Shown piece by piece: positions 8,134 through 52,137 of a stretch of DNA of 64,000 nt (position 1 is its first letter; each line of letters begins with the position of its first letter). The notes under the pieces were generated by a model, which ran no database searches, was not told the origin of the DNA, and worked only from the letters and a program-made list of their open reading frames with translations. Origin of the DNA: Escherichia coli. Lineage in GTDB: Bacteria; Pseudomonadota; Gammaproteobacteria; Enterobacterales; Enterobacteriaceae. Made by a program: the position numbers and the translations under genes. The stretch lies in assembly GCF_044647545.1 (NCBI RefSeq), contig NZ_CP172818.1. One strand, 5' to 3'.

Positions 8134-8742
8134 TCAAGCCTTTGGCGGTTCGGTGCGAGCAAAACTTTCGCGGCTAAACAGGTTTTCGACCAGTTTGACT
8201 AAGTGTGGGCGGTCGACACACCAGCCTGGCGCAACGCGGCGGAAATTGAGATATCCGACGGCACAGGCAATGGCGATAGTCGCCAGATTGACCGTATCGG
8301 TTTTGAGCGTGCCATCGACCAGATATCCTTCCAGCACATCCAGACTGCGGTTGATTTTCTCCCGCTGGCGTAACAATTCATCTTCAGACTGCTGCGCCGC
8401 CGGACGCGCCTGTTCACGCACCGATACCAGCCCGGCATCCATAATGCCATCCGCCAGTGCCTCAATTTTGCGCACTCGCAACGACTCCAGCGGATCGCGC
8501 GGCAACATCGCCGGAGCGACATTCATTAATTCAATATATTCAGCGATGATCGCCGAATCAAACCAACATTCACCCTCTTCGGTCACCAGCACCGGCACTT
8601 TCCCTAACGGGTTAAATTGCGCCACGCCGTTGTCCGCGTTATAGGGCAGTTCATTAATAAATTCGAAAGTTATGCCCTTTTCTAACAACAGAATAGAAAG
8701 TTTGCGTACAAACGGGCTGGTGTAGCTACCGACGAGTTTCAT
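8134..8742 (-). CDS. yibF: Glutathione S-transferase-like protein
   Basis: 202-aa ORF ([24 protein letters not shown]...) with GST N-terminal thioredoxin-like fold signature; K-12 gene order. Confidence 0.85.
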
Positions 8743-8970
8743 GCCGAGTCCTTTGTGCGAGGAAAAATATCAGTATGGCCTGGTGATGGGAAAAAGGGCA
8801 GAAAATGTTGATGGTTTGTTACTTCCCAATAAATCACATATTTATCATGGTGATATAAATATTTTCCTAATTGTTCTTATCTGACAGATATCTCACTTAA
8901 GGCTTTCTTATAAATCTGTAGGGTTTCGCCTGTCAGCAGACAAATAACCCGATAAAACAAGGATGAGCAG

Positions 8971-11900
8971 ATGAGCGGAAAACCGGCGGCGCGTCAGGGC
9001 GACATGACGCAGTATGGCGGTAGCATTGTCCAGGGTTCAGCCGGGGTACGTATTGGTGCCCCCACCGGCGTGGCCTGTTCGGTGTGCCCCGGCGGAGTAA
9101 CGTCCGGCCATCCGGTCAATCCGCTGCTCGGTGCAAAGGTCCTTCCCGGCGAGACAGACATCGCCCTGCCCGGCCCGCTGCCGTTCATTCTCTCCCGCAC
9201 CTACAGCAGTTACCGGACAAAAACGCCCGCGCCGGTGGGGAGCCTCGGCCCCGGCTGGAAAATGCCTGCGGATATCCGCTTACAGCTGCGCGATAACACA
9301 CTGATACTCAGTGATAACGGCGGCAGAAGCCTGTATTTTGAGCACCTGTTTCCCGGTGAGGACGGTTACAGCCGCAGCGAGTCACTCTGGCTGGTGCGCG
9401 GCGGCGTGGCGAAACTGGATGAAGGTCACCGGCTGGCCGCACTCTGGCAGGCGCTGCCGGAAGAGCTTCGCCTGAGTCCGCATCGTTATCTGGCGACGAA
9501 CAGTCCACAGGGGCCGTGGTGGGTACTCGGCTGGTGTGAGCGGGTGCCGGAGGCGGATGAGGTGCTGCCTGCGCCGCTGCCGCCGTACCGGGTACTGACC
9601 GGGCTGGTGGACCGCTTCGGGCGCACACAGACGTTCCACCGTGAGGCTGGCGGCGAATTCAGCGGCGAAATCACCGGCGTGACGGATGGCGCAGGCCGTC
9701 ACTTCCGGCTGGTACTGACCACGCAGGCGCTGCGGGCAGAAGAGGCCCGGCAGAAGGCCATTTCCGGCGGGACGGAACCGTCCGCTTTTCCTGATACCCT
9801 GCCGGACTACACGGAATATGGCCGGGACAACGGTATCCGTCTGTCTGCCGTGTGGCTGACACACGACCCTGAATACCCGGAGAATTTACCTGCCGCGCCG
9901 CTGGTGCGCTATGGCTGGACGCCACGCGGCGAACTGGCGGTGGTGTATGACCGCAGCAATACACAGGTGCGCAGCTTTACTTACGATGATAAATACCGGG
10001 GCCGGATGGTGGCGCACCGTCACACGGGCCGGCCGGAAATCCGTTACCGTTACGACAGTGACGGGCGGGTGACAGAACAGCTAAACCCGGCAGGCTTAAG
10101 CTACACGTATCAGTATGAGAAAGACCGCATCACCATCACCGACAGCCTGGACCGCCGTGAAGTCCTGCATACCGCAGGCGAAGGCGGCCTGAAGCGGGTG
10201 GTGAAAAAGGAACACGCGGACGGCAGCGTCACGCAGAGTCAGTTTGACGCGGTGGGCAGGCTTAAGACACAGACGGATGCCGCAGGCCGGACAACAGAAT
10301 ACAGCCCGGATGTGGTGACGGGCCTCATCACGCGCATCACCACGCCGGATGGCAGGGCATCGGCGTTTTACTATAACCACCACAGCCAGTTAACGTCAGC
10401 CACCGGGCCTGACGGGCTGGAAATACGCCGGGAATATGATGAATCCGGCCGTCTGATTCAGGAAACCGCCCCTGACGGCGATATCACCCGCTACCGTTAT
10501 GATAATCCACACAGTGACTTCCCCTGCGCAACGGAAGATGCCACCGGCAGCCGGAAAACCATGACGTGGAGCCGTTACGGTCAGTTGCTGAGCTTCACCG
10601 ACTGTTCCGGCTACCAGACCCGTTATGACCATGACCGCTTCGGGCAGATGACGGCGGTGCACCGCGAGGAAGGCCTGAGCCAGTGCCGCGCATACGACAG
10701 CCGTGGACAGTTAATTGCCGTGAAAGACACGCAGGGCCATGAAACGCGGTATGAATACAACATCGCCGGTGACCTGACCGCCGTCATTGCCCCGGACGGC
10801 AGCAGAAACGGGACACAGTACGATGCGTGGGGAAAGGCCATCCGTACCACGCAGGGCGGGCTGACCCGCAGTATGGAATACGATGCTGCAGGACGGGTCA
10901 TCCGCCTGACAAACGAAAACGGCAGCCACACCACCTTCCGTTACGATGTACTCGACCGGCTGATACAGGAAACCGGCTTTGACGGCCGCACACAGCGTTA
11001 CCACCACGACCTGACCGGCAAACTTATCCGCAGCGAGGATGAGGGGCTGGTCACCCACTGGCACTATGACGAAGCAGACCGCATCACGCAGCGAACGGTG
11101 AATGGTGAAACCGCAGAACAGTGGCGGTACGACGAACGCGGCTGGCTGACACAAATCAGCCATCTCAGCGAAGGGCACCGGGTGACGGTGCATTACGGGT
11201 ATGATGAGAAAGGCCGCCTGACCGGTGAGCGCCAGACGGTGCATCATCCGCAGACGGAAGCACTGCTCTGGCAGCATGAGACCAGACATGCGTACAACGC
11301 GCAGGGGCTGGCGAACCGCTGTATACCGGACAACCTGCCCGCCGTGGAATGGCTGACTTATGGCAGTGGTTACCTGGCAGGGATGAAACTCGGCGACACA
11401 CCGCTGGTGGAGTACACCCGCGACCGCCTGCACCGGGAAACGCTGCGCAGCTTCGGCCGTTATGAACTCACCACCGCTTATACCCCTGCCGGGCAGTTAC
11501 AGAGCCAGCACCTGAACAGCCTGCAGTATGACCGCGATTACACCTGGAACGACAACGGCGAACTCATTCGCATCAGCAGCCCGCGCCAGACCCGGAGTTA
11601 CAGCTACAGCGACTCCGGCAGGCTGACCGGCGTTCACACCACCGCAGCGAACCTGGATATCCGCATCCCGTATGCCACGGACCCGGCAGGTAACCGCCTG
11701 CCCGACCCGGAGCTGCACCCGGACAGCACCCTCAGCATGTGGCCGGATAACCGTATCGCCCGTGACGCGCACTATCTTTACCGGTATGACCGTCACGGCA
11801 GGCTGACGGAGAAAACCGACCTCATCCCGGAAGGGGTTATCCGCACGGATGATGAGCGGACTCACCGGTACCATTACGACAGCCGGCACCGGCTGGTGCA

Positions 11901-12750
11901 CTACACGCGGACACAATATGCAGAGCCGCTGGTCGAAAGTCGCTATCTTTACGACCCGCTGGGCCGCAGGGTGGCAAAACGGGTGTGGCGGCGTGAACGG
12001 GACCTGACGGGCTGGATGTCGCTGTCACGGAAACCGGAAGTGACCTGGTACGGCTGGGACGGCGACCGCCTGACCACGATACAGAACGACAGAACCCGCA
12101 TCCAGACGGTTTATCAGCCGGGGAGCTTCACACCACTCATCAGGGTCGAAACCGCCACCGGTGAGCAGGCGAAAACGCAGCGCCGCAGCCTGGCGGATGC
12201 GCTTCAGCAGTCCGGCGGCGAAGACGGTGGCAGTGTGGTGTTCCCGCCGGTGCTGGTGCAGATGCTCGACCGGCTGGAAAGTGAAATCCTTACTGACCGG
12301 GTGAGTGAGGAAAGCCGCCGCTGGCTGGCATCGTGCGGCCTGACGGTGGCGCAGATGCAAAACCAGATGGACCCGGTGTACACGCCGGCGCGAAAAATCC
12401 ACCTGTACCACTGCGACCATCGCGGCCTGCCGCTGGCGCTTGTCAGCACGGAAGGGGCAACAGAATGGTGCGCAGAATACGATGAGTGGGGCAACCTGCT
12501 GAATGAAGAGAACCCGCACCAGCTGCAACAGCTTATCCGCCTGCCGGGTCAGCAGTATGATGAGGAGTCCGGCCTGTATTACAACCGCCACCGCTATTAT
12601 GACCCGCTGCAGGGGCGGTATATCACTCAGGATCCGATTGGGCTGAAGGGGGGATGGAATTTTTATCAGTATCCGTTGAATCCGATATCAGACATCGAGC
12701 CCCCTGGGTTTATCTATGTGGGAGGATGCAAAATCGGGGGCATGTACTAA
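8971..12750 (+). CDS. rhsA: Rhs-family core protein (RhsA-type) with N-terminal PAAR-like region and YD repeats; very short atypical C-terminal tip
   Basis: 1259-aa ORF starting [26 protein letters not shown]; many YD/RHS repeats (RYRYDxxGR); conserved core end ...[29 protein letters not shown], followed by only [21 protein letters not shown] before the stop. GC-rich, unlike the AT-rich DNA downstream. Confidence 0.9.
12241..12686 (+). repeat. 3' end of rhs core; copy A of a dispersed direct repeat (copies at 14626-15069 and 17213-17298)
   Basis: About 450 bp nearly identical to 14626-15069; the last 80 bp or so also recur at 17213-17298. Boundaries are approximate. Confidence 0.8.
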
Positions 12751-13754
12751 TGGTCTTTGCGGCATATCAGCTGTGATGAGAGGTGCATAAGTTTTTCATA
12801 GACCGCATATGACGCCTTAATAACAATAAAATTAAAATATATTTTCAATAAAATCAATAGCCAAATAAAATAAATAAATAAATTTTCCCTGCACCTAGAA
12901 CGTGGAGAAAGTTAGTACATACTATGGATGCAATAGCATTGACATAATGGTGGGACGAATATTTTCACTTCGACTAATGTGGTAGATATCAGATTTGGAC
13001 GAAATATTTTAAGCAAAGATGAAAATAATTAAAATAAACAACGAATAAATACCACCCCATTAATAAACAATAGATAACCACGGGAAGGAAATAACAAACG
13101 GAAAAGGATCCGATGCCAGAGTTATCGGTAATATTAAAAAAAAAAATATAAATAAAATAAATAAATTTTATTTAGCACTCCCATTTTTTTTACACAACAT
13201 GGCCATAATAATAATTTTAAAATAATAATGACGGGAAAGAGAGAAAGAAGGTAAACTGTAAAAGGATTACAAAAATTTGGTCTACAAATACAGGTTATAG
13301 TAAAAAAATATTTTTTAGAATTTATTGTATCTTTTTTTTTTTACAACAACACAGGTCGCAGTGTAATTACAGAGATATTAAAATAATGCTCAAATTTATG
13401 AAGCAGTGAGGCAGAAGAATATACATATAAACGCTTCATTAAAACAAGTGGGTAATTTGGTTAAAAATAAACTAACATTGAATTACAATATATGTTAAAA
13501 TCAGGCAACCAAAAAGAAAAAATATAAAATATGATTAACAACAAGTCTTGTTGAAGGCACCATTCACTCAGACCAAATTGCTGGTGGGGTTTTTATTAGA
13601 AAATAGGCAAAAATGATGGGGTAATTCTGAATTTTGGCCACGGAAAATAAGTATGTAAGGATAATCAAACATCGTGTGCGCTGATGGCAGAGTAGGTGGA
13701 GGACTCCAGACAGTCAAACGATAAAAAAAGATAGCCTTTATGGAGGCTCCTGCA

Positions 13755-14597
13755 ATGTCAAATACATACCAGAAAAGAAAGGCAAGTAAAGAGTATGGTT
13801 TATATAATCAATGTAAGAAACTAAATGATGATGAATTATTTCGCTTACTTGATGATCACAATTCCTTGAAAAGGATTTCATCTGCCAGAGTATTACAGTT
13901 AAGAGGTGGGCAAGACGCTGTTAGATTGGTAATTGAGTTCTGCTCTGATAAAAATTATATCCGTAGAGATATCGGAGCATTTATACTCGGGCAAATAAAA
14001 ATTTGCAAAAAATGCGAAGATAATGTGTTTAATATTTTGAACAATATGGCATTGAATGATAAGAGCGCTTGCGTTCGAGCTACGGCAATCGAGTCAACGG
14101 CTCAGCGATGCAAGAAAAACCCAATTTATTCACCTAAAATAGTAGAACAATCTCAAATTACTGCTTTTGATAAATCGACTAATGTCAGACGTGCTACAGC
14201 ATTTGCTATTTCTGTTATCAATGATAAAGCAACAATTCCACTATTGATTAATCTGTTAAAAGATCCAAATGGAGATGTCAGAAACTGGGCCGCATTTGCA
14301 ATAAATATCAATAAATATGATAATAGTGATATTAGGGATTGTTTTGTGGAGATGCTTCAGGATAAAAATGAGGAAGTCCGTATTGAAGCAATAATCGGAC
14401 TTTCCTACAGAAAAGATAAAAGGGTTTTATCTGTTTTATGCGATGAGTTAAAAAAAAATACTGTTTATGATGATATCATTGAAGCTGCGGGTGAATTAGG
14501 TGATAAAACGCTACTTCCTGTTTTAGATACTATGTTGTACAAGTTTGATGACAATGAAATTATAACTTCCGCTATTGATAAGCTGAAGCGTTCATAG
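13755..14597 (+). CDS. yibA: HEAT/armadillo-repeat protein YibA
   Basis: 280-aa product from the ATG at 13755 (MSNTYQKRKASKEYGLYNQ...); repeated helical DxxVRxxAxxAL-like units; sits inside the Rhs accessory region as in K-12. Confidence 0.85.
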   Translation: MSNTYQKRKASKEYGLYNQCKKLNDDELFRLLDDHNSLKRISSARVLQLRGGQDAVRLVIEFCSDKNYIRRDIGAFILGQIKICKKCEDNVFNILNNMALNDKSACVRATAIESTAQRCKKNPIYSPKIVEQSQITAFDKSTNVRRATAFAISVINDKATIPLLINLLKDPNGDVRNWAAFAININKYDNSDIRDCFVEMLQDKNEEVRIEAIIGLSYRKDKRVLSVLCDELKKNTVYDDIIEAAGELGDKTLLPVLDTMLYKFDDNEIITSAIDKLKRS

Positions 14598-14638
14598 CGT
14601 GAGTTGCCTATGCACAGTGGGGTATTCCCGCCGGCACG

Positions 14639-15148
14639 GTGCAGATGCTCGATCGGCTGGAAAGTGAAATCCTGGCTGACCGGGTGAGTGAGGAAAGCCG
14701 CCGCTGGCTGGCATCGTGCGGCCTGACGGTGGAGCAGATGCAAAACCAGATGGACCCGGTGTTCACGCCGGCGCGAAAAATCCACCTGTACCACTGCGAC
14801 CATCGCGGCCTGCCGCTGGCCCTTATCAGCAAGGAAGGGACAACAGAATGGTACGCAGAATATGATGAATGGGGCAACCTGCTGAATGAAGAGAACCCGC
14901 ACCAGCTGCAACAGCTCATCCGCCTGCCGGGTCAGCAGTATGATGAGGAGTCCGGCCTGTATTACAACCGCCACCGCTATTATGACCCGCTGCAGGGGCG
15001 GTATATCACTCAGGATCCGATTGGGCTGAAGGGGGGATGGAATTTTTATCAGTATCCGTTGAATCCGATGACAACGGTTGATCCTCTTGGATTAAAATTT
15101 AAGGTAGAAGGTGACGGTCAGCTTTTGATTCTGCAATTGAATATTTGA
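14639..15148 (+). pseudogene. yibJ: Orphan Rhs core-end fragment (yibJ/rhsJ-like) with a truncated C-terminal tip
   Basis: GTG-initiated 169-aa ORF duplicating the last 150 residues or so of the rhsA core ([12 protein letters not shown]...[27 protein letters not shown]), then only 17 residues before the stop; no upstream core. Confidence 0.65.
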
Positions 15149-15209
15149 AACAAGATGATGAGATGAAAAAAAATAATTACGGCCCTTGAAAAGGATAAAC
15201 ACACTATAG

Positions 15210-15536
15210 TGGTTAGTTGTAATAATAATTATGATACACTCATTTAATCGATGGACAATGAGAATACACTGGGATCCTAAAGCTGCTCTATTGTGTACGG
15301 GTGTACAGAAAGATGGTAATTTTGATTTTAAAAATGACAATCTTGAGCCTGTAGTAGCATTAGGTCATGAAATAGCCCATGCAGAGGCTTATTAAATGAA
15401 GAATTCAGTGTTTATATGAAGCGAGTAAATACACCTGATCCTATATATGATAACGCAGAGGAAAGAAGAGTAATAACAGGTATTGAGAAACATGTTGCAC
15501 AAACATTAAAACAATGTGTTAGAAAAAACCACGGGG
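15210..15536 (+). pseudogene. Decayed remnant of a putative HExxH-motif toxin domain (two short frames separated by a frameshift)
   Basis: Frame 1 (about 15210-15396) translates ...WDPKAALLCTGVQKDGNFDFKNDNLEPVVALGHEIAHAEAY*; a second frame (about 15411-15536) gives MKRVNTPDPIYDNAEERRVITGIEKHVAQTLKQCVRKNHGE*. Read by eye; no ORF of 60 aa or more. Confidence 0.3.
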
Positions 15537-17284
15537 AATAATTTACCATGTACCTTAACAATATACGGTTGTAGTTGCTATATTTGTAAAGAGATTACCC
15601 CATCGAACCGGAATAAATGAAAATGACTATATTTTATGAGTTACTATCATCATTGAACAATCAGCATATAAGATAACCTCACCAAAAGCAGTTTAAACCA
15701 TGGTAAGTTGTAGAAGTGGGACATCTCGGCACCCCATTTTTTGTATGAAAAGTTACGAGAAATATATATTTTAATTTTTTTTTATATTATATATTAACCA
15801 AAATTAAAAAAACAACAATTTAAATAAAAAATTATTTATTACTTATATATTAACAATATCATAATAAATTCATTAAAACCGCTAGTTATAAATAATTATA
15901 AAAAAATCACAAATTGTTAAAATTTAATATTAATTATTTTAAAACAACCTAATGATATAAGATGGGGATTTATAGATCTAAGTGAAAGAGCTTGTTACTA
16001 TATTTTTATTTTTCTTTTGTTCCGGTGATTTGAATGGTATTAGTATGTTGAAAAAAATAGAAAAAAAGTGGAGGGGTCTAAGCCATAATATATCATTAGT
16101 GAAGAAAAGATGATGCATAAACTGAAATATAATATGGCAAAAAAGAATTCAAAGGCATCATTCTACTCCTGACTATTTTTCACATTTCCTCGAAGTTAAA
16201 TTGAAAATACGAGACGCAATATTAAAATTATACAAATGAATTCCAGAAAATCACGTAACGCTGCTTTTTTTACTAAACAATTCCATTTTATGTTTAAAAA
16301 TTAGATATCTATTAGAAGCTGTTTTTTATTGTTATAGATCATCAAAAATACTCCTTATAATAAAAGAACAAAATTGATTAAAAAATTGAAAATATTTATT
16401 ATCCATTACAACAATAAAAAATAAATTATATATTCTATTTGACTATTGGTTATTTCGTAGATGGTTGGGAAATATAACGATTATTGGAAAGATCAGCATC
16501 TCGGGATTTTTACAAGCAATATTGATTTTGAAAAGGGTATTCCTTTTCACGATACCATTCCAGATTTACCTGTATCAGATCTTGCATAATTTCACGAGAG
16601 CTTTATTAATTGGATGTGACATTCTCAGATGAAATAAAGCGTCATATTGTATGGAAACGATTTATACAAATCCCCAAATATTATTATGTAAAAATTTATC
16701 AAATAGAAATCAGACAGATGCGAAATCCAATGAGATCAAACAGCTACAAATTTAAAAATATTAAAAAAAATCATCACAAACGTATTAAAAATAAAAAATA
16801 CAAAAACATATTATTTATCTTAAAAGAAATCACCTAAATAAACCTAGAAAAATCATAAAATTAAATAACAAAATACATACCAATTATGAAAAATCACCAA
16901 AAAAATCTCTCACATTCATTCTATGAATTATTATTTCACTAATAAATCTAAAATCATTGCATCTCTCTCAATAATACAAACAAAAAAAAAAAAACGTCAA
17001 TATAATCATTCTTATTTAACCAAAGCTTCCACACAATCGAAACAGCACGGAAATAAGCCGCACTGGCGTCGACGCGGTAATGAATGAAGACGACTGCAAA
17101 ATAAGAAGAATCCGTAAACAGCAGAATTAGTTCTCAGGATACCGCACACGCTAGTAATATACGAATGATAAGTATTCAAGGCAGTGCTAAGACGTAATAT
17201 CGGTAACTTTTCCCGCCGCAGGGGCGGTATATCACTCAGGATCCGATTGGGCTGAAGGGGGGATGGAATTTTTATCAGTATCCG

Positions 17285-17758
17285 TTGAATCCGATAACTG
17301 ATATTGACCCGTTGGGATTAGCGACCTGTTTATACAGCATAACTTTAGGTATGCTTTCATGCGTTTCAGATACGTCAAGTGATGATAATTCTTATGGTGT
17401 GCTTACTATTTCAGTCGCCTCTGGTAATAATGGTAATAATATGCAATGTAAAAATAATCCTGGTTGTACACACTTACAAAATAGAGGCCCAATACCTCAA
17501 GGGGTATGGAGCTGGAATGTTAATGGTCCTGGAGCAACTAATAGAAAACCTAATGGTATACGTTTAGTACCGTCAGCAAATACAGAAACGTATAATCGTG
17601 ATGGATTTTTAACACATAGTTGTTTAAACGCTTTTGGTCCATCTTTAGGACCTCGATTCTGTTCCGAGGGGTGTATAACTGGTTCATCTAATGACATGCA
17701 AAAATTAAATGAGCTAATATTTTCAGAGCCAGATAGCACATTAACAGTGACGGACTAG
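17285..17758 (+). CDS. Orphan Rhs C-terminal toxin module; putative L,D-transpeptidase-like (YkuD/Tlde1-like) toxin domain
   Basis: Rhs core-end homology resumes at about 17213 ([36 protein letters not shown]); in-frame stop at 17204-17206 and no ATG before the TTG at 17285. The tip contains RGPIPQGVW and H-x15-SEGCI ([24 protein letters not shown]), resembling the LD-transpeptidase catalytic His/Cys signature. Confidence 0.6.
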
Positions 17759-17762
17759 AAAT

Positions 17763-18284
17763 ATGGCAAGGTTATTAACAATTGTGCTTTTTTTCTCTAT
17801 TTCTGCGAATGCAGTTACTGTAAACCAATTTCAGAGAGAGTTGGATTTGGCAGACAAGGCAATATTATGGGCACTAATATCAGCCAGTACCCAAGAGGGA
17901 CGAAAAGCGTGTTCACTTAGCTATTTTTCATGTAAAGCCGCAGAGGCTGAACTCGGACTGGCATATATGGCTGCTAATGATAACAAGGCATTTCTCACAT
18001 CCTTATCTAGAATAATGATGTACAAAATAGATGCTGGACTTTCCGAATCCTATACATGCTATTTATTAAGCAAGGGAAAGATCATAAGACCATATCTGAA
18101 GAATCTAAATCCACACCAACTTGTCGCTGATTGCATTGAAACTGTAAATAAAATAAAAGATAAAAATAAAAAAATCATTGATATAGATTCAGTTAATATT
18201 TGCAATGATAATAAAAATATAAATTGGAGAGTTAATAGTACTATTGTAGCCATTGATGATTCTATAAAATGCATCGATGAATAA
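17763..18284 (+). CDS. Putative secreted (periplasmic) immunity protein paired with the upstream orphan Rhs toxin
   Basis: 173-aa ORF starting 5 bp after the toxin stop; N-terminal signal-peptide-like segment MARLLTIVLFFSISANA followed by a Cys-containing soluble domain; AT-rich like the toxin tip. Confidence 0.5.
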   Translation: MARLLTIVLFFSISANAVTVNQFQRELDLADKAILWALISASTQEGRKACSLSYFSCKAAEAELGLAYMAANDNKAFLTSLSRIMMYKIDAGLSESYTCYLLSKGKIIRPYLKNLNPHQLVADCIETVNKIKDKNKKIIDIDSVNICNDNKNINWRVNSTIVAIDDSIKCIDE

Positions 18285-18741
18285 TAACTTAATTATATTT
18301 AAAAATATATTAATAACTCACTCTCCAGGAGTTTTTTTAACTTAGTGTTATAATGAATACGATAATTAAAAGTGAAGAGAAAAATAGTTGTATACATATA
18401 TTCCATGAACCTACATTGTGATCTATAAATTAAATATTTTTAAATGTGACTATCATCCTTCAGATAATAAAGCCATCATCGCAATAGATGGAAAAGCACT
18501 CCTGCTCTTTTTTGATTAGAGCCGTGGCAGAGGAACAACTCATATCATCATTGCGATCTCGACAATGTATAGTCTGATCCTTCGGCAGATCAAGACGGAT
18601 AAAAAATCCAATGAGTTCACACTCATCCCGAACTTCTTAACATAATGGATATTAACGAAAAATCATCACAGCCGATGAAATAATATGCAAAAATAATTAG
18701 TCCTTGCAGGGAGCAAAGTTCCATAATCTCCCCCGCCCCCC

Positions 18742-19878
18742 TCAATGATCCAAATAAAGATAATGCATCCAACTGGTCATTCTTAGCAGCACCTTCCGCA
18801 TCACCGAAACATGGCTGAAATGGTCGGAGTAAACTGCTACCTGGGCGTAAATGCCGTCGGGTAAGGCATCGATATCATCGTTAGGGTCCAGTTCAATGGT
18901 TCCCAGCACACCGTCCGTGCCGGGTACGACGGTTAATGATTGCAGTACCCCTTGCGCCTGATACGAACCGCCTGGCACGACAGGTAAAATACTAGTCAGT
19001 TTGCCGTGGAACACCTGCCCAGGTAGCGCGTTAAACACCACTTCCGCATCATCGCCGGGTTTCAGACGTAACAGCGAGTTCTGCCGAAATTGGGCGACAA
19101 TTTGCCGTTTTTGCTCGGGGATGAAAACCATCACCGGACGCAACGGCAAGGCAGCTGCGTATGTACCTGGGCGGATCAGTACCTGAGTAACGTAGCCATT
19201 GCTTGGTGCGCGAATGACAGTCTGCTCAAGGTTATATTTTGCTTCAGTAAGTTGCGCTCTTAAGCTCACAATCTGCGACTGCTCGCCGTTAACCATACTG
19301 TCGAGCTGGCTCTGGATCTGCGCCTGCTCCGCCACCGAGCCTTTCACCAGCGCGTCCTGCGCGAGGAAGTTTTGCCGCGCATCGTCGATGTCACGTTCCG
19401 AGAACGGATTCACTGCCGCCTGGCTGCCTTTCAGGTAACGTTGATAATTTTTAAACAGGCGGTCGCGCTCCGCTGAAACCTGGGTGGTGTTGGCCTGCGC
19501 TTCAGTGAGCTGCGCGCGCAGCGTCTTTATATTATGCGTCGCCGTCATCAGGTCAGCCTGAAGTCTGTCAACTCGCGCCTGGTAACGAACCGGGTCGAGC
19601 TTAAAAAGCACCTCGCCCTTCTGAATAAGCTGATTATTTTTGTCGGTGACTTCAGTAACAATTCCCGTCACCTGTGGCGTGATGGGGATCGCTATCACTG
19701 CCTTTTGCGCGGTAAAAGTGTAAGGGTGGTTGTAGTTCATCAACAAAATCAAACCACTCACCAGAAACACGCCTCCCAGCGCCGCCGTCGCCAGCGTCCA
19801 CTGATTTACCGGAATGCGGAAGATTTTAAAGACCGCCCACGCCAGCGCCACGTAAGTTAAAACAATCAATAGATCCAT
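18742..19878 (-). CDS. yibH: HlyD-family membrane fusion protein
   Basis: 378-aa ORF with N-terminal TM helix, long coiled-coil (RLQADL...LRAQLTEAQ) and C-terminal beta-barrel typical of HlyD/EmrA periplasmic adaptors. Confidence 0.85.
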
Positions 19879-19880
19879 AT

Positions 19881-20243
19881 TTAGATCTCCGGGAACGTGG
19901 AATAGTCAGTCTTTTTCTCGGCGGCGAGTTGATGCTCCAGCCGGGAAATTCGGTCAGAAAGTGCGGCGATTTCCGGGTCAGTCGCTTTCTCCTGCGACGC
20001 AACATGTGACTGCATACCCCAGCCACGCTCCGGTTGATAGAGCGTCGCCCAGATCCACAGGAACGGCCAGATAACATGCAGAGTAAACAGGCTCACCCAG
20101 CCCGCTGTATGAATAGCGTCGGCATGGGGGTGATTACGCTTTTTGGCAATCAGATAAGGGATGTCATGTATCGCGATGATTCCATAAAAAATCACCAGAA
20201 AGACGAAGATCAGCACTCCCAACGCGAAGTAGTTTAGAAACAT
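19881..20243 (-). CDS. yibI: DUF3302 inner-membrane protein
   Basis: 120-aa product from the ATG at 20243 ([45 protein letters not shown]...); the track ORF extends upstream to 20345. Confidence 0.85.
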
Positions 20244-20458
20244 ATCTGCCTCGGATTCACGTTTATCAGTGTTGTTTTTGGCTGGCAGCCAGATGGGAGT
20301 CGGGCTGATATTTTGACAATAATCCGGGTTGGCGATTCTCGCCATAACACCGAAGAATAATTTTTAGAGGTGATGAGTTGCTTAGTTACATAACGATTTT
20401 ATGACGAAGGCATAACATGCTGCAGATCACATCAGGTGAACGCCGTAAGAAAATATCT

Positions 20459-20474
20459 TGTGATTCAGATCACA
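20459..20474. promoter_or_regulatory. CRP binding site (TGTGA-N6-TCACA) in the mtlA promoter
   Basis: tgtgattcagatcaca, a perfect match to the CRP half-site consensus. Confidence 0.7.
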
Positions 20475-20502
20475 AAGATTCAACAAACTAACAAAACAAA
20501 AA

Positions 20503-20518
20503 TGTGACATTACTCACA
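20503..20518. promoter_or_regulatory. CRP binding site in the mtlA promoter
   Basis: tgtgacattactcaca, perfect TGTGA-N6-TCACA. Confidence 0.7.
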
Positions 20519-20575
20519 TTTAAATGCCATTTTTAGCGAAAATCGCCGCCTTGTTGCTTTTTTACACAAGAGTTT

Positions 20576-20591
20576 TGTGATGCACATCACG
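20576..20591. promoter_or_regulatory. CRP-like site in the mtlA promoter
   Basis: tgtgatgcacatcacg, one mismatch in the right half-site. Confidence 0.6.
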
Positions 20592-20629
20592 TCAATTACC
20601 TCTCTACCCCCTATATTTATGTGATTCAT

Positions 20630-20645
20630 ATCACACAAAAAGCCG
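20630..20645. promoter_or_regulatory. CRP binding site in the mtlA promoter
   Basis: tgtgattcatatcaca, perfect TGTGA-N6-TCACA about 135 bp upstream of the mtlA ATG. Confidence 0.7.
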
Positions 20646-20778
20646 TCGACTGGACAGTTAACCGATTCAGTGCCAGATTTCGCAGTATCTACAAGGTCCG
20701 GCTACCTCTGCCGCCACATTAACAAAAAACCTCGGGCTTCCAGCCTGCGCGACAGCAAACATAAGAAGGGGTGTTTTT

Positions 20779-22692
20779 ATGTCATCCGATATTAAGATCA
20801 AAGTGCAAAGCTTTGGTCGTTTCCTCAGCAACATGGTGATGCCAAATATCGGCGCGTTTATCGCGTGGGGTATCATCACCGCGTTATTTATTCCAACAGG
20901 GTGGTTACCGAACGAAACGCTGGCGAAGCTGGTCGGGCCGATGATCACTTATCTCCTGCCACTGCTGATCGGTTATACCGGTGGTAAGCTGGTAGGCGGC
21001 GAACGTGGCGGCGTAGTCGGTGCCATTACCACCATGGGCGTTATCGTCGGCGCAGACATGCCGATGTTCCTCGGTTCTATGATTGCAGGTCCGCTGGGCG
21101 GCTGGTGCATTAAGCACTTCGACCGCTGGGTAGACGGTAAGATCAAATCCGGTTTTGAAATGCTGGTGAATAACTTCTCCGCAGGCATCATCGGGATGAT
21201 CCTCGCTATTCTGGCATTTCTCGGCATTGGCCCGGTTGTTGAAGCCCTGTCTAAAATGCTGGCGGCGGGCGTTAACTTCATGGTTGTCCATGACATGCTG
21301 CCGCTGGCGTCTATCTTTGTTGAACCGGCGAAAATCCTGTTCCTCAACAACGCCATTAACCACGGTATCTTCTCGCCGCTGGGTATTCAGCAGTCCCATG
21401 AACTGGGTAAATCCATCTTCTTCCTGATTGAAGCTAACCCAGGTCCAGGTATGGGCGTGCTGCTGGCGTACATGTTCTTTGGTCGTGGTAGCGCTAAACA
21501 GTCTGCGGGCGGTGCGGCAATCATCCACTTCCTGGGGGGTATCCACGAAATCTACTTCCCGTATGTGCTGATGAATCCGCGTCTGATTCTGGCCGTTATC
21601 CTCGGCGGTATGACTGGCGTATTCACGCTGACTATCCTGGGCGGTGGGCTGGTTTCTCCGGCATCTCCGGGTTCTATCCTTGCTGTACTGGCGATGACGC
21701 CAAAAGGTGCTTACTTCGCTAACATCGCGGGTGTGTGTGCGGCGATGGCAGTCTCCTTCGTTGTCTCTGCTATTTTGCTGAAAACCAGCAAAGTGAAAGA
21801 AGAAGATGATATTGAAGCTGCTGCGCGTCGCGTTCAGGAAATGAAAGCTGAGTCTAAAGGTGCATCTCCGCTGTCTGCGGGCGATGTGACTAACGACCTG
21901 AGCCACGTACGTAAAATCATCGTTGCCTGTGACGCCGGTATGGGTTCCAGTGCGATGGGCGCAGGTGTGCTGCGTAAGAAAATTCAGGATGCAGGTCTGT
22001 CGCAGATTTCTGTTACTAACAGCGCGATCAACAACCTGCCGCCAGATGTGGACCTGGTCATCACTCACCGTGACCTGACCGAACGCGCTATGCGCCAGGT
22101 TCCGCAGGCACAGCATATTTCGCTGACCAACTTCCTCGACAGCGGCCTGTACACCAGCCTGACCGAACGTCTGGTTGCTGCCCAGCGCCATACTGAAAAC
22201 GAAGTAAAAGTGAAAGACAGTCTGAAAGACAGCTTTGACGATTCCAGTGCTAACCTGTTCAAGCTAGGCGCGGAGAACATCTTCCTCGGTCGCAAAGCGG
22301 CCACCAAAGAAGAAGCGATTCGTTTTGCTGGCGAGCAGCTGGTGAAAGGCGGTTACGTTGAGCCGGAATACGTTCAGGCGATGCTGGATCGTGAAAAACT
22401 GACCCCGACTTATCTGGGTGAGTCTATCGCGGTGCCACACGGTACGGTTGAAGCAAAAGATCGCGTACTGAAAACGGGCGTGGTGTTCTGCCAGTACCCG
22501 GAAGGCGTGCGCTTCGGTGAAGAAGAAGATGACATTGCCCGTCTGGTGATTGGTATTGCTGCCCGTAACAACGAGCACATTCAGGTTATCACCAGCCTGA
22601 CCAATGCACTGGATGATGAGACTGTCATCGAGCGTCTGGCACACACCACCAGCGTGGATGAAGTGCTGGAATTGCTGGCAGGTCGTAAGTAA
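20779..22692 (+). CDS. mtlA: PTS mannitol-specific EIICBA component
   Basis: 637-aa ORF ([31 protein letters not shown]...) with membrane EIIC, EIIB Cys region and C-terminal EIIA domain. Confidence 0.95.
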
Positions 22693-25387: not shown

Positions 25388-25423
25388 GAACACAGTATCT
25401 ACAGGGTGATTCTGCACATTCCT

Positions 25424-25460
25424 ATAGGCCGAGTAAGGTGTTCACGCCGCATCCGGCAAG
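25424..25460. repeat. REP element
   Basis: ataggccgagtaaggtgttcacgccgcatccggcaag, matching the REP consensus (reverse orientation). Confidence 0.65.
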
Positions 25461-25544
25461 ATAAGGCGCTCTGGATCAACAACCTAAGGGCAATTCTCTG
25501 ATGAGGATTGCCCTTTTCTTTACCAGACATCTCCCTCCACCAAG

Positions 25545-42963: not shown

Positions 42964-43923
42964 ATGCGGGTTTTGATCGTTAAAACATCGTCGATGGGCG
43001 ATGTTCTCCATACGTTGCCCGCACTCACTGATGCCCAGCAGGCAATCCCAGGGATTAAGTTTGACTGGGTGGTGGAAGAAGGGTTCGCACAGATTCCTTC
43101 CTGGCACGCCGCCGTTGAGCGAGTTATTCCTGTGGCAATACGTCGCTGGCGTAAAGCCTGGTTCTCGGCCCCCATAAAAGCTGAACGCAAAGCGTTTCGT
43201 GAAGCGCTACAAGCAGAGAACTATGACGCAGTTATCGATGCTCAGGGGCTGGTAAAAAGCGCGGCGCTGGTGACGCGTCTGGCGCATGGCGTAAAGCATG
43301 GCATGGACTGGCAAACCGCTCGCGAACCTTTAGCCAGCCTGTTTTACAATCGTAAGCATCATATTGCGAAACAGCAGCACGCCGTAGAACGCACCCGCGA
43401 ACTGTTTGCCAAAAGTTTGGGCTATAGCAAACCGCAAACCCAGGGCGATTATGCTATCGCACAGCATTTCCTGACGAACCGGCCTACAGATGCTGGCGAA
43501 TATGCCGTATTTCTTCATGCGACGACCCGTGATGATAAACACTGGCCGGAAGAACACTGGCGAGAATTGATTGGTTTACTGGCTGATTCAGGAATACGGA
43601 TTAAACTTCCGTGGGGCGCGCCGCATGAGGAAGAACGGGCGAAACGACTGGCGGAAGGATTTGCTTATGTTGAAGTATTGCCGAAGATGAGTCTGGAAGG
43701 CGTTGCCCGCGTGCTGGCCGGGGCTAAATTTGTAGTGTCGGTGGATACGGGGTTAAGCCATTTAACGGCGGCACTGGATAGACCCAATATCACGGTTTAT
43801 GGACCAACCGATCCTGGATTAATTGGTGGGTATGGGAAGAATCAGATGGTTTGTAGGGCTCCAAGAGAAAATTTAAATAACCTCAACAGTCAAGCAGTTT
43901 TGGAAAAGTTATCATCATTATAA
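42964..43923 (+). CDS. waaC: LPS heptosyltransferase I
   Basis: 319-aa ORF (MRVLIVKTSSMGDVLHTLPALTDAQQAIPG...). Confidence 0.95.
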   Translation: MRVLIVKTSSMGDVLHTLPALTDAQQAIPGIKFDWVVEEGFAQIPSWHAAVERVIPVAIRRWRKAWFSAPIKAERKAFREALQAENYDAVIDAQGLVKSAALVTRLAHGVKHGMDWQTAREPLASLFYNRKHHIAKQQHAVERTRELFAKSLGYSKPQTQGDYAIAQHFLTNRPTDAGEYAVFLHATTRDDKHWPEEHWRELIGLLADSGIRIKLPWGAPHEEERAKRLAEGFAYVEVLPKMSLEGVARVLAGAKFVVSVDTGLSHLTAALDRPNITVYGPTDPGLIGGYGKNQMVCRAPRENLNNLNSQAVLEKLSSL

Positions 43924-43932
43924 AGGTAAAAC

Positions 43933-45192
43933 ATGCTAACATCCTTTAAACTTCATTCATTGAAACCTTACACTCTGAAATCATCAATGATTTTAGAGAT
44001 AATAACTTATATATTATGTTTTTTTTCAATGATAATTGCATTCGTCGATAATACTTTCAGCATAAAAATATATAATATCACTGCTATAGTTTGCTTATTG
44101 TCACTAATTTTACGTGGCAGACAAGAAAATTATAATATAAAAAACCTTATTCTTCCCCTTTCTATATTTTTAATAGGCTTGCTTGATTTAATTTGGTATT
44201 CTGCGTTTAAAGTAGATAATTCGCCATTTCGTGCTACTTACCATAGTTATTTAAATACTGCCAAAATATTTATATTTGGTTCTTTTATTGTTTTCTTGAC
44301 ACTAACTAGCCAGCTAAAATCAAAAAAAGAGAGTGTATTATACACTTTGTATTCTCTGTCATTTCTAATTGCTGGATATGCAATGTATATTAATAGCATT
44401 CATGAAAATGACCGCATTTCTTTTGGTGTAGGAACGGCAACAGGAGCAGCATATTCAACAATGCTAATAGGGATAGTTAGTGGCGTTGCGATTCTTTATA
44501 CTAAGAAAAATCATCCTTTTTTATTTTTATTAAATAGTTGCGCGGTACTTTATGTTCTGGCGCTAACACAAACCAGAGCAACCCTACTCCTGTTCCCTAT
44601 AATTTGTGTTGCTGCATTAATAGCTTATTATAATAAATCACCCAAGAAATTCACTTCCTCTATTGTTCTACTAATTGCTATATTAGCTAGCATTGTTATT
44701 ATATTTAATAAACCAATACAGAATCGCTATAATGAAGCATTAAATGACTTAAACAGTTATACCAATGCTAATAGTGTTACTTCCCTAGGTGCAAGACTGG
44801 CAATGTACGAAATTGGTTTAAATATATTCATAAAGTCACCTTTTTCATTTAGATCAGCAGAGTCACGCGCTGAAAGTATGAATTTGTTAGTTGCAGAACA
44901 CAATAGGCTAAGAGGGGCATTGGAGTTTTCTAACGTACATCTACATAATGAGATAATTGAAGCAGGGTCACTGAAAGGTCTGATGGGAATTTTTTCCACA
45001 CTTTTCCTCTATTTTTCACTATTTTATATAGCATATAAAAAACGAGCTTTGGGTTTGTTGATATTAACGCTTGGCATTGTGGGGATTGGACTCAGTGATG
45101 TGATCATATGGGCACGCAGCATTCCAATTATCATTATATCCGCTATAGTCCTCTTACTCGTCATTAATAATCGTAACAATACAATTAATTAA
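43933..45192 (+). CDS. waaL: O-antigen ligase (K-12 type)
   Basis: 419-aa polytopic membrane ORF (MLTSFKLHSLKPYTLKSSMILEIITYILCFF...), AT-rich. Confidence 0.9.
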   Translation: MLTSFKLHSLKPYTLKSSMILEIITYILCFFSMIIAFVDNTFSIKIYNITAIVCLLSLILRGRQENYNIKNLILPLSIFLIGLLDLIWYSAFKVDNSPFRATYHSYLNTAKIFIFGSFIVFLTLTSQLKSKKESVLYTLYSLSFLIAGYAMYINSIHENDRISFGVGTATGAAYSTMLIGIVSGVAILYTKKNHPFLFLLNSCAVLYVLALTQTRATLLLFPIICVAALIAYYNKSPKKFTSSIVLLIAILASIVIIFNKPIQNRYNEALNDLNSYTNANSVTSLGARLAMYEIGLNIFIKSPFSFRSAESRAESMNLLVAEHNRLRGALEFSNVHLHNEIIEAGSLKGLMGIFSTLFLYFSLFYIAYKKRALGLLILTLGIVGIGLSDVIIWARSIPIIIISAIVLLLVINNRNNTIN

Positions 45193-45223
45193 GAATAAAC
45201 AAGTTTAAGAAGTGAGTTAAAAC

Positions 45224-46297
45224 TCACTTCTTATCTATACAACTTAATCTCTTTACTGAATTAGTTAAAGTTTCAGTATCGATATCTTTTACCGTATATG
45301 TTGGGGATACTATTTGTATAGATTTATGATGATTCGGGGACCAAATTAAATGCGAGGGATATTCCGGAGTACGTGAATTAGGGTAAAATGCAAGCGTTGG
45401 TTTATGATAAGCCGCAGCGATATGAACAAGAGCTGTATCAACAGAAATGACAAAATCACTATACTTGGTCAACGCAACGGTATAAATAAACTCATCAAAT
45501 GGTAGTGTTTCGATTTCAAGTATTGGTATTGTCAATAAATCTTGCGGTAACCCGGTAAATATAATCCGATAATTTTCAAAGTGTGTTTTCACTTCTTGAT
45601 ATATAACTTTTATTTGCTCAAACGTAAGACGGCATATTTTTTTTGCACCTAATGGATTAATAATGACTATTCTTGTATCTCCAATAAATTCTTTTATTTT
45701 ATCTTCAACATCTACTGGTAAATGCAAGTCGTAGTTGGTGGAAAATTTACCCTCACCATAAATATGCTTCAGTATTTCTATTGCTCGTGTACTCATATGT
45801 TCTTTTAAACATTCATCGTGGGGATGGTAAAATGAATAGTAACGCTTATACCAATGATCAAAACCCAGAATGTAAGAATCTTTTAAACTTGATAATATTA
45901 AGCTATGCTTAAATGAGGGCATAGTTTCAAAGGGGTCTAATACAATATCGAACTGTAAATCCCGCAGATGCTTACATAGAGTAAGCATTTCAAGAAAACC
46001 GGTTGATTCTTTAATACAGAACTCAAATATATTTTTATTATTAGAGAGAAATTCCCCACCCTTTCTATTTGTGAGAAGAGTTATTTTAACCCCTTTACTA
46101 TAAAGTTCACGATAAATCGAACTTAATACAATTAGATCACCAAGTTTATTATTATCATGAATAATAAGGCATGATTTAACTTGTGCTGGATCTGTAATTT
46201 GATTATTTATTTTATTACGAAATAAAAAAGAAAGGAAATTAATCTTGATTTTGTTTATATAAAATCTTTTCTTTTTGTGAAAAGTTCCTAAGCGCAT
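45224..46297 (-). CDS. waaU: LPS core heptosyltransferase IV (WaaU/RfaK)
   Basis: 357-aa GT9-family ORF; position in the K-12 core cluster. Confidence 0.85.
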   Translation of the reverse strand: MRLGTFHKKKRFYINKIKINFLSFLFRNKINNQITDPAQVKSCLIIHDNNKLGDLIVLSSIYRELYSKGVKITLLTNRKGGEFLSNNKNIFEFCIKESTGFLEMLTLCKHLRDLQFDIVLDPFETMPSFKHSLILSSLKDSYILGFDHWYKRYYSFYHPHDECLKEHMSTRAIEILKHIYGEGKFSTNYDLHLPVDVEDKIKEFIGDTRIVIINPLGAKKICRLTFEQIKVIYQEVKTHFENYRIIFTGLPQDLLTIPILEIETLPFDEFIYTVALTKYSDFVISVDTALVHIAAAYHKPTLAFYPNSRTPEYPSHLIWSPNHHKSIQIVSPTYTVKDIDTETLTNSVKRLSCIDKK

Positions 46298-46329
46298 TTT
46301 TATACCATATTATTTTAGTTTCAGGATGA

Positions 46330-47181
46330 TTAATTAGCATAAGAATCGGTTGAAGTTCTATATTGCATTTTTTTTCTTGTCATATCTTTTGATTCTTCTG
46401 CACTGATGTCTTGAAGTTTAATAAATGGAATTACATCGTAAGAAATAGCTGTATCATCTGATAAATTATAAATATTAATATCTTTTACATTATCATGCAT
46501 AAAACGAAAAAATGGCAATATTTTGAATAAATCCCTACTTAATTCCGAGGGCATGGGATTTTTATTCTCATCATAGAAACGAGAACAGCTACCCGTTAAA
46601 TCAAGACCAGAACAAATAATCCGCGCATACTTAAGTGAATATGCGATTTGAATTGCAGCAAAGGCAATAGTATGGCATGAGCAATAACCAAGACTAATGT
46701 CCTTGCAAAATCCAACCAGACGACCTTTTTTAGACAACGGTACAGAGATCAGCAGTTCTTTGTGAATCTGTCTCAAAATATTAAATTTAATCTTCTTTAT
46801 AAAACCACCTTTTTCCCGACGGTAAAAGGACCGTAATACGAGGCAGTTCTGGAGGATATAAAGTTTATCTTCTTTGGAAGCGTGTTCATAAACGTCAACG
46901 TTTACTATGGTATAACGACTTCTCTGGCTAAATTTATAAAAATCATCACGACGCTGATGTAAAAATCGGACATCTGTAAGTACATATATAAAAGGAACGA
47001 TATTATTACTTAACAGATATTGCGCAGAACCATTGACAGCAATAATATCCTTTGTTCGTAATACTGACAAAGGTGTTTTTTGCGATGTAGGGCCCGAAAG
47101 AAAAATAATAACATCATCAGATATTTTATTTTCAATCAGGTTTTCAACATCTTTTTTGTCAATGTATCTAATATTCTTCAT
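46330..47181 (-). CDS. waaZ: LPS core biosynthesis protein WaaZ (KdoIII-related)
   Basis: 283-aa ORF (MKNIRYIDKKDVENLIENKISDDVIIFLSGPTSQ...); K-12 core-type gene. Confidence 0.8.
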   Translation of the reverse strand: MKNIRYIDKKDVENLIENKISDDVIIFLSGPTSQKTPLSVLRTKDIIAVNGSAQYLLSNNIVPFIYVLTDVRFLHQRRDDFYKFSQRSRYTIVNVDVYEHASKEDKLYILQNCLVLRSFYRREKGGFIKKIKFNILRQIHKELLISVPLSKKGRLVGFCKDISLGYCSCHTIAFAAIQIAYSLKYARIICSGLDLTGSCSRFYDENKNPMPSELSRDLFKILPFFRFMHDNVKDINIYNLSDDTAISYDVIPFIKLQDISAEESKDMTRKKMQYRTSTDSYAN

Positions 47182-47251
47182 GATAAACCTGTGAAATAAA
47201 TAACTCCGCTTAAAACTGTCCTGGTGAAGACATGTAATTGTGGGATTTTTT

Positions 47252-47950: not shown

Positions 47951-47967
47951 AATAAACCAGTTAAATG

Positions 47968-48984: not shown

Positions 48985-49023
48985 AATGCTACCCTTATAT
49001 CATTACTTTATAGTTTCCCAGTT

Positions 49024-51122: not shown

Positions 51123-51165
51123 AGAAACTCTCATTAATTGAGTAAAACTCACTGTTTTAACGGTT

Positions 51166-52101: not shown

Positions 52102-52137
52102 AATAAAGTTAGTTCCAGTACATACTAATAAATATTT

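Follow-up and report, generated by a model that had tools for sequence, protein, structure and literature searches.

The window, a 64-kb stretch of Escherichia coli DNA, contains a well-known rhs element of this species, in which an Rhs polymorphic-toxin gene is followed by displaced modules. We consider it probable that this is an ordinary array of such modules and that the apparent "no toxin" state of its main gene is an artefact. The array lies in the yibF-mtlA interval, between yibF and yibH/mtlA (the rhsA position), and its modules are ordered as full-length rhs, yibA, orphan 1 (a core fragment and a frameshifted Peptidase_M91-like tip), ISAs1, and orphan 2 (Tlde1 and Imm57). Twelve related E. 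coli loci have the same array with its three copies of the core repeat. Rhs orphan arrays and main/orphan switching by recombination have been published before (Jackson 2009; Poole 2011; Koskiniemi 2014). The features on which our analysis draws are as follows.

8971-12750, + strand: main rhs gene as read in the window, a 1259-aa ORF with a complete Rhs core and a 13-residue out-of-frame tail (ORF translation, NF041261).
12231-12686, + strand: repeat copy 1, formed by the last 455 bp of the core in the main rhs gene (repeat finder, BLAST, register-wise comparison).
12660-12675, + strand: patch of 8 substitutions, changing the RhsB-type core end NLYGYQ to the orphan/RhsA-type NFYQYP (comparison with related locus L008).
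12699, + strand: inserted G in the codons of the DPLGL cleavage motif, changing SDIDPLGL to SDIEPPGF (comparison with relatives).
12765-13547, + strand: eroded block 1, remains of a DUF4329 (RhsB-type) tip and the yhhH (Imm-NTF2-2) immunity gene (comparison with intact relatives).
13755-14597, + strand: yibA, an intact HEAT-repeat orphan gene of immunity type (NCBIfam PRK09687, 463 bits; annotated yibA in relatives).
14615-15069, + strand: repeat copy 2, the orphan 1 core fragment (yibJ-like), without the N-terminal five-sixths of the gene (repeat finder, BLAST; RHS_core profile positions 1112-1261 in the homologue at related locus L012).
15070-15560, + strand: orphan 1 tip, frameshifted; its HExxH domain weakly resembles Peptidase_M91 (in the intact L012 version, Pfam PF14891 with E=9e-4).
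15640-17210, + strand: eroded block 2, derived from an AT-rich spacer and an ISAs1 (H-repeat) element (comparison with intact relatives).
17212-17295, + strand: repeat copy 3, ~84 nt from the extreme 3' end of an rhs core (repeat finder, register-wise comparison).
17296-17758, + strand: orphan 2 tip, with a DPLGL motif and an intact Tlde1 toxin domain (L,D-transpeptidase-like, DUF2778; PF10908 on identical products; annotated "tlde1 domain-containing protein" in relatives).
17763-18284, + strand: Imm57-family immunity gene for the Tlde1 tip (PF15596; annotated Imm57 in relatives).

The first-pass annotation had reported three direct copies of the rhs core 3' end at 12241-12686, 14626-15069 and 17213-17298, with yibA between the first two, and had proposed comparing the three intervals pairwise. 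The repeat finder, BLAST and register-wise comparison bear out both the copies and the position of yibA, and the coordinates given for the copies were off by at most ~10 nt. By BLAST against relatives and by register-wise comparison, copies 1 and 2 match over 455 bp at ~96% identity, interrupted by a single 1-nt indel towards the 5' end, and their longest unbroken identity is 152 nt (12535-12686). The repeat finder returned 12255-12554 = 14638-14937 (300 nt, 96%) and a three-copy family at 12603-12711, 14986-15094 and 17212-17320. Between the main gene and orphan 2, homology begins at ~12603/17212 and includes a 79-nt perfect run (12609-12687 = 17218-17296); the 5' side of copy 3 is cut by the ISAs1 element. 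About 80 nt are identical across all three copies, and identity ends at 12686, 15069 and 17295, which is the core/tip junction, immediately 5' of the DPxGL codons. The orphan fragments are thus direct, in-frame copies of the main core 3' end without the N-terminal delivery region, and the length and identity of the repeats are far above chance expectation.

In its chromosomal position, its yibA, its yibJ-like core fragment and its associated ISAs1/H-repeat, the array resembles the E. coli K-12 RhsA element, whose gene order we take to be rhsA-yibA-yibJ-yibG and onward, with H-repeat/ISAs1. It differs in that the attached tip of the window's lineage is RhsB-type (DUF4329 and YhhH) and the terminal orphan is Tlde1/Imm57. 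Because the attached tip is of this type, yibA, which is 100% identical to that of the relatives and is an immunity-type gene without a toxin, is a displaced orphan. Like the Enterobacteriaceae arrays for which a model of C-terminal displacement of rhs tips was put forward (Jackson et al. 2009, PMC2935791), the window has AT-rich tips behind a GC-rich core, and the dissociated tips each retain a piece of core. On that model we read the three repeats as remnants of successive displacement events, in which each new tip would have come with a core piece, recombined with the resident core and displaced the old tip downstream.

In the reverse step, the main core would recombine with an orphan by RecA-type homologous recombination, and the orphan tip would be rejoined to a delivery-competent core. 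The direct orientation and common reading frame of the copies make this possible. The claim that a downstream tip could be grafted onto the core held in a simulated crossover for orphan 2 and failed for orphan 1. With orphan 2 the product is an in-frame 1392-aa Rhs-Tlde1 protein, formed via 79-81 nt of perfect homology with removal of 4,609 bp. With orphan 1 the tip stops 17 codons past the DPLGL motif, since the Peptidase_M91-like tip is frameshifted, both here and in 11 of the 12 relatives; the intact version, of 304 aa, is that of L012. The window's own copy has single-base indels peculiar to it at 15114, 15237, 15391 and 15532, and no immunity gene was identified for this tip. In the window sequence, then, the only complete toxin would be the Tlde1 tip. 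Homology of 79-81 nt supports recombination at low frequency only.

We infer that recombination between main core and orphan takes place in the strain from which the window derives. Natural mosaics and moved modules in other strains speak for it indirectly: a hybrid core end in E1316, the core-Tlde1 arrangement of EC26, and relocation of the orphan-1 module to another rhs locus in WB61. The mechanism had been described in the first-pass annotation as already proposed for Rhs and CDI orphan modules, and the literature agrees (PMC3967940, PMC2935791, PMC3150448). In Salmonella Typhimurium LT2, a full-length rhs-main (STM0291) is followed by a direct-orientation rhs-CT-orphan (STM0292) whose first part repeats the 3' end of the core; the shared core is 522 bp at 95% identity (compared with 455 bp at 96% here), recombinant junctions were detected, and recombination between the repeats joins the core to the toxin of the orphan (Koskiniemi et al. 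2014, PMC3967940). A simple deletion between repeats, as had been envisaged for the window, does not describe the whole event in Salmonella, the only experimental case, where duplication of the locus came first and the main immunity gene was retained (PMC3967940). The window also differs from LT2 in having two orphans, a lone immunity gene and an IS; its nearer orphan tip is frameshifted, and the homology of its usable orphan to the core is limited to 79-84 nt. The CDI cdiA-CT/cdiI orphans (Poole et al. 2011, PMC3150448) and the neisserial mafB arrays (PMC2935791) likewise place silent toxin/immunity cassettes after a toxin gene, each behind a stretch homologous to the main gene, with cassette exchange by homologous recombination as the proposed use. 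Their delivery proteins (two-partner secretion CdiA, and MafB) are unrelated to Rhs, and the likeness is one of working and not of membership.

The orphan 2 tip and the gene downstream of it are annotated to the Tlde1 family of T6SS effectors (PF10908, Tlde1_dom/DUF2778) and to Imm57 (PF15596). The Imm57 protein has a hydrophobic, signal-peptide-like N-terminal stretch, which fits a periplasmic target, and the exact protein occurs in 3,906 collection blocks with PF15596. From 17218 onward the window is 100% identical to its relatives. Unlike the stand-alone Tlde1 effectors, the window's domain forms the C-terminal tip of an Rhs protein, and in this lineage it lies silent with no more than 84 nt of core before it. 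At the same locus, strain EC26 has an RhsC-type main gene and carries the Tlde1 tip behind ~1 kb of core, and a 792-nt query (387 nt of core plus the Tlde1 tip) was matched over at least 80% as one contiguous place in 97 genomes, in line with a history of displacement at the locus. Among the best 120 protein matches there was no full-length recombinant main-Tlde1 gene; all were at most 336 aa, so that re-attachment of the Tlde1 tip in E. coli is not evidenced.

That the Tlde1 tip occurs in E. coli only as an orphan among these best matches also favours a different view of the array, which we hold as a tentative alternative and which is compatible with our preferred explanation. The main role of the orphans may be to keep immunity genes in store, or they may work as self-contained modules of toxin-antitoxin type, each driven by its own promoter, and the core repeats would then be scars that are not used for switching. 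Consistent with this, yibA and Imm57 are perfectly conserved beside toxin parts that are decaying; ISAs1 has trimmed the orphan 2 homology to 84 nt, which runs against selection for a long recombination substrate; and a 2020 Salmonella study reports that its rhs elements also work as type II toxin-antitoxin modules (PMC7043789). Against it, main/orphan recombination has been shown directly in Salmonella in nearly the same geometry (PMC3967940), the orphan-1 module has moved in WB61, and the repeats are in frame and identical up to the junction.

The main gene itself has a complete Rhs core. Residues 1-1246 match NCBIfam RHS_core NF041261 with 2627 bits (cut-off, 2000 bits) over profile positions 1-1260 of 1261, and the gene also matches YD_repeat_2x and Rhs_assc_core, so that the YD-repeat shell and RHS core of ~1,250 residues are present. 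Over 8200-12659, just 2 sites distinguish the window from the syntenic rhs at L008, and near 12000 the core changes from L002-like to L001-like. The patch at 12660-12675 extends the perfect homology with the orphans. Because the same hybrid core joint occurs naturally in rhsB of strain E1316, this patch is probably a real mosaic, produced by recombination or gene conversion. Beyond the joint, the relatives and E1316 read NPISDIDPLGL. Both orphans keep the PxxxxDPxGL autoproteolysis motif in their corresponding 11 residues, whereas the 11 residues read from the window's main gene lack it, as a result of the G at 12699. This G, found in none of the 12 related loci nor in E1316, frameshifts the toxin tip to a stop at 12748-12750, and no record of the same 1259-aa protein was found.

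Downstream of the stop there is no ORF of at least 100 codons within 12748-13724. Block 1 has no ORF, 27% GC and local stutter duplications, and is ~73-74% identical to the intact segment of the relatives; the DUF4329 tip and YhhH survive as eroded traces in shifted frames (37-38% amino-acid identity), so the main gene, as read, has neither a C-terminal toxin nor a cognate immunity gene. Block 2 also has no ORF, is 26% GC and ~450 bp shorter than the relatives' segment, and is ~73% identical to it. It holds an ISAs1 transposase remnant (~16372-17205) in place of the intact 378-aa DDE transposase ORF (PF01609) of the relatives. The 12 loci are otherwise 99-100% identical to the window and carry intact DUF4329 toxin, YhhH immunity and ISAs1, and the blocks are collinear with these intact segments. 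Copies of the blocks were absent from 5,426 complete E. coli genomes, the GTDB representative genomes and the JGI metagenomes.

The pattern of the lesions points to error. Reference bases were retained unequally (A 91%, T 79%, C 61%, G 43%; G versus C, p=1e-8; A versus T, p=9e-12), and block 2 has 493 bases missing and 60 substitutions relative to the reference. A genuine old ISAs1 relic at 18446-18677, common to the relatives, has the opposite pattern, with 48 mismatches and 2 gap openings in 234 nt, so that substitutions dominate and not deletions. The remainder of the window is clean. Since the lesions are confined to one sequence and have an error-like signature, the likeliest reading of the inserted G and the two blocks is a sequence-quality artefact, and the apparent loss of the toxin is most likely not biological. 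Deletion-dominated, strand-asymmetric, stuttering lesions could arise from uncorrected read or assembly error or from other corruption of the record. The lack of a toxin and immunity gene then probably reflects the record rather than the strain, which, like its relatives, would probably carry DUF4329 toxin, YhhH and ISAs1. The emphasis that the first-pass annotation had placed on a main gene with no toxin is therefore not upheld, because it rested on a single G and an eroded block that, among thousands of genomes, occur only in the window.

Counting against the artefact reading, the RhsB-type tip with yhhH is single-copy in the nearest relatives. ISAs1 occupies 4 places per genome, and an account based on unpolished repeats therefore fits block 2 better than block 1.

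If the lesions were real, which we think improbable, the main Rhs would have lost its toxin and immunity gene through the DPLGL frameshift and erosion, the IS would have decayed, and the empty shell could be re-armed only by crossover with the Tlde1 orphan. The sequence as given does read this way, whole modules are damaged (toxin and immunity, the orphan 1 tip, the IS) while yibA, Tlde1 and Imm57 are intact, and pseudogenised rhs tips are common, as orphan 1 itself illustrates. However, ~25% divergence with hundreds of small deletions is incompatible with 99.6-100% identity to the relatives over 8 kb of flanking sequence, unequal loss of complementary bases is not expected from double-stranded mutation or decay, the nearby relic decays chiefly by substitution, and intermediate stages of decay were present in no other genome searched.

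If homologous recombination had brought in the blocks from a distant lineage, not yet sampled, with a long-decayed RhsB-type tip, yhhH and ISAs1, this would suit the mosaic nature of rhs loci and the collinearity of the blocks. We regard such an import as very unlikely: two separate events would be needed, with breakpoints just around dead DNA, the donor would need ISAs1 at the identical insertion site, donor-like sequence was absent from every collection searched, and the strand-asymmetric dropout of G and the stutters would be left unaccounted for.

Another observation runs against the artefact. The equally AT-rich neighbours yibA, Tlde1 and Imm57 are perfect, so that the damage tracks module boundaries and not base composition, and this could suggest something selective. 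To an in vivo process that erases specific modules by dense, strand-biased small deletions and GC-to-AT changes while sparing adjacent genes and 8 kb of flanking sequence (a targeted, local "gene-scrambling" or silencing mutagenesis that would leave an Rhs shell re-armable only from the Tlde1 orphan), we give only a very slim chance.

At face value, the window would present a natural disarmed Rhs delivery protein that is re-armable from a silent cassette. This unusual part hinges on ~2.4 kb that no other genome searched supports and that has an error-like signature, and it would be prudent not to conclude that genes have been lost at this locus before reads have confirmed it. The array and its recombination logic are already established for Rhs, CDI and Maf systems. 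For E. coli, the comparisons add that a silent orphan with the Tlde1 tip is widespread at the rhsA-position locus, that the homology available for switching ranges from ~84 nt to ~1 kb by lineage, and that at least one strain has had its orphan-1 module moved from one rhs locus to another.

The rhs locus in the window occupies the E. coli rhsA position, with ORF calls and BLAST placing selB, selA and yibF on one side and yibH, yibI and mtlA on the other. The main rhs gene is followed by yibA, orphan 1, an AT-rich stretch, orphan 2 and Imm57, in that order:

8971-12750 (+): main rhs ORF, 1259 aa; complete RHS core (NF041261, 2627 bits, residues 1-1246), then 13 unrelated residues
Downstream of the main ORF: yibA, a HEAT-repeat gene (PRK09687, 463 bits)
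14615-15069: core fragment of orphan 1, followed by a tip weakly like Peptidase_M91
Between orphan 1 and orphan 2: AT-rich stretch
17212-17295: 84-nt core remnant of orphan 2, fused to a Tlde1-domain tip at 17296-17758
17763-18284: Imm57 gene

The main ORF carries the RHS core and, as written, has neither the DPxGL motif nor the toxin and immunity features of a complete rhs gene. Orphan 2 shows all the features of an orphan rhs-CT module and orphan 1 shows part of them; the Peptidase_M91 (PF14891) match of the orphan-1 tip is weak (E=9e-4) and was obtained on its sole intact homologue, a 304-aa protein in L012. The same architecture is present in twelve related loci from other E. coli strains (L001, L002 and L005-L014). 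Where the window is free of ORFs, these loci encode a DUF4329 (RhsB-type) tip and yhhH (Imm-NTF2-2) and contain ISAs1.

We also compared the structure of the window with that of the closest complete genome, NZ_CP042896.1. Structural differences were found at 3410, 25388-25484, 43862-52242 and 62071-64000, outside the array. NZ_CP042896.1 has approximately 1.1 kb extra where its Fic-family gene stands, and a further 6 kb or so, absent from the window, with genes for a YadA-like adhesin and a SadB/YajI lipoprotein. The LPS core (waa) clusters of the two do not align at all, and the last 1.9 kb of the window is unmatched from the point of the NZ_CP042896.1 reverse-transcriptase-family gene adjoining pyrE.

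The first-pass annotation had proposed three direct copies of the core 3' end, and the repeat finder, alignment and BLAST all recovered them, with the original coordinates right to about 10 nt. Within the window the repeat finder matched 12255-12554 to 14638-14937 (300 nt, 96% identity) and grouped 12603-12711, 14986-15094 and 17212-17320 into one family of three copies, with which the three-way alignment agrees. BLAST and a register-wise comparison extend the main/orphan-1 repeat to 455 bp (12231-12686 versus 14615-15069, approximately 96% identical), with a longest perfect run of 152 nt at 12535-12686; the main/orphan-2 pair shares a perfect run of 79 nt (12609-12687 = 17218-17296). All copies are in direct orientation and in the same codon phase, and in all three the similarity ends at one shared junction, just 5' of the DPxGL codons.

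That a crossover between these repeats would graft a downstream tip onto the full-length core held in simulation, with a complete tip from orphan 2 and a truncated one from orphan 1. Recombination of the main gene with orphan 2 removed 4,609 bp, kept Imm57 and yielded an uninterrupted 1392-aa Rhs-Tlde1 protein with its 11-residue motif intact. Recombination with orphan 1 removed 2,383 bp, yibA included, and gave only a truncated tip, the product stopping 17 codons past DPLGL owing to a frameshift in the M91-like tip. Of the 12 relatives, 11 have this tip broken into two parts, and in the window it bears four more single-base indels (15114, 15237, 15391 and 15532) that are found in this sequence alone. 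A usable toxin would be reached only through the short main/orphan-2 homology. The reading of the locus as a recombination-ready Rhs orphan array appears sound, but it is already known: the mechanism is established for Rhs orphan arrays, the geometry closely resembles that of the Salmonella LT2 rhs main/orphan locus, whose two copies share 522 bp at 95% identity and for which recombinant junctions were detected (Koskiniemi et al. 2014, PMC3967940), and in function the array would work as the Salmonella orphan system does. The likeness to CDI and Maf cassette arrays is by analogy only.

C-terminal displacement has been proposed as the origin of such arrays (Jackson et al., PMC2935791); under this model the orphan tips would have been dislodged earlier, leaving core repeats behind them. 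Several observations are consistent with a displacement history. At the same locus, strain EC26 has an RhsC-type main gene and carries the Tlde1 tip behind approximately 1 kb of core, whereas in the lineage of the window ISAs1 has reduced the orphan-2 core to 84 nt. The window core is itself mosaic, in part like L002 and in part like L001. A patch at 12660-12675 with 8 substitutions connects an orphan-type core end with an RhsB tip, and the same hybrid joint occurs naturally in the rhsB locus of E1316 (L015, 6061-6090), with the RhsA/orphan-type NFYQYP codons and an RhsB-type tip; besides the window, only 2 of 5,426 complete genomes have this hybrid core end. This points to gene conversion over short tracts exactly where core and tip meet. 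Finally, an rhs locus of WB61 between rpmE and yiiX/metJ (L017, 6238-6973) holds a 736-bp copy of window 14564-15299, comprising the yibA 3' end, the core fragment of orphan 1 and 230 nt of the orphan-1 tip, inserted in a pseudogenised rhs gene; the home rhsA locus of WB61 (L011, 6813-6816) has a 195-bp internal deletion in the orphan-1 core fragment. We read WB61 as a natural case in which an orphan module has moved from one rhs locus to another. The 120 best protein matches include no full-length Rhs with a Tlde1 tip, and none listed exceeded 336 aa, a ceiling that may partly reflect how candidates were collected. Junction DNA queries for Rhs-Tlde1 and Rhs-M91 fusions returned orphans with a longer core in EC26 and a single pseudogenised insertion in WB61.

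The first-pass annotation had also taken the main gene to be without a toxin. This rests on differences unique to the window and error-like in pattern, and is probably not the state of the organism. Alignment to the closest loci gives 99.6-100% identity over 8200-12659, 13548-15640 and 17218-21000. The window has an extra G at 12699, within the DPLGL codons, and two ORF-free blocks of 26-27% GC, 12765-13547 and 15640-17210, that are collinear with the tip-yhhH and spacer-ISAs1 segments of relatives, yet only approximately 73% identical to them. In the second block 493 reference bases are missing, against only 60 substitutions. Retention of reference bases differs within each complementary pair, with 91% of A against 79% of T (p=9e-12) and 61% of C against 43% of G (p=1e-8), a highly significant asymmetry. 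Local duplications resembling stutter occur in the first block, and both blocks have more long A/T runs than the reference. No comparable damage is present elsewhere in the window. An old, genuine ISAs1-related relic 3' of Imm57 (18446-18677), unchanged in relatives, was used as an internal control for natural decay. It matches part of the transposase gene at 78.6% identity, with 48 mismatches but just 2 gap openings over 234 nt, and the pattern of the blocks is the opposite.

Searched with distant-mode BLAST for the eroded version, none of the 5,426 complete E. coli genomes yielded a closer relative of either block. The best substantial match was approximately 74-75% identical, higher-identity matches being short fragments, and we therefore rejected a diverged natural allele. 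A 40-mer from the first block was absent from GTDB representatives and JGI metagenomes in an exact scan, the 1259-aa truncated product is not on record in an exact-product look-up, and contigs with the exact Imm57 protein have the intact architecture in all 10 places listed.

Most likely, then, the lesions, the single-base indels of the orphan-1 tip among them, are a defect of the sequence record, such as an uncorrected low-quality long-read fill, because a double-stranded in vivo process would be unlikely to produce approximately 25% strand-biased erosion between flanks identical to other isolates. Weighing against such a defect are the respect of the damage for module boundaries, with yibA, Tlde1 and Imm57 perfect although just as AT-rich, and the tip-yhhH segment, of which the nearest relatives have one copy. 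Unpolished repeats would fit ISAs1, found at four places per genome, but fail for the single-copy RhsB-tip/yhhH segment, and we retain them solely as one way in which an artefact could have arisen. RIP-like or deaminase hypermutation was rejected, as deletions make up most of the changes and transitions are a minority. So was a mixed population carrying the main/orphan-1 deletion: the bounds of the first block do not match the 2,383-bp deleted interval, and yibA, which lies within it, is undamaged. It seems to us very improbable that a targeted, strand-biased erosion of specific modules is real; if re-sequencing bore it out, the locus would be striking.
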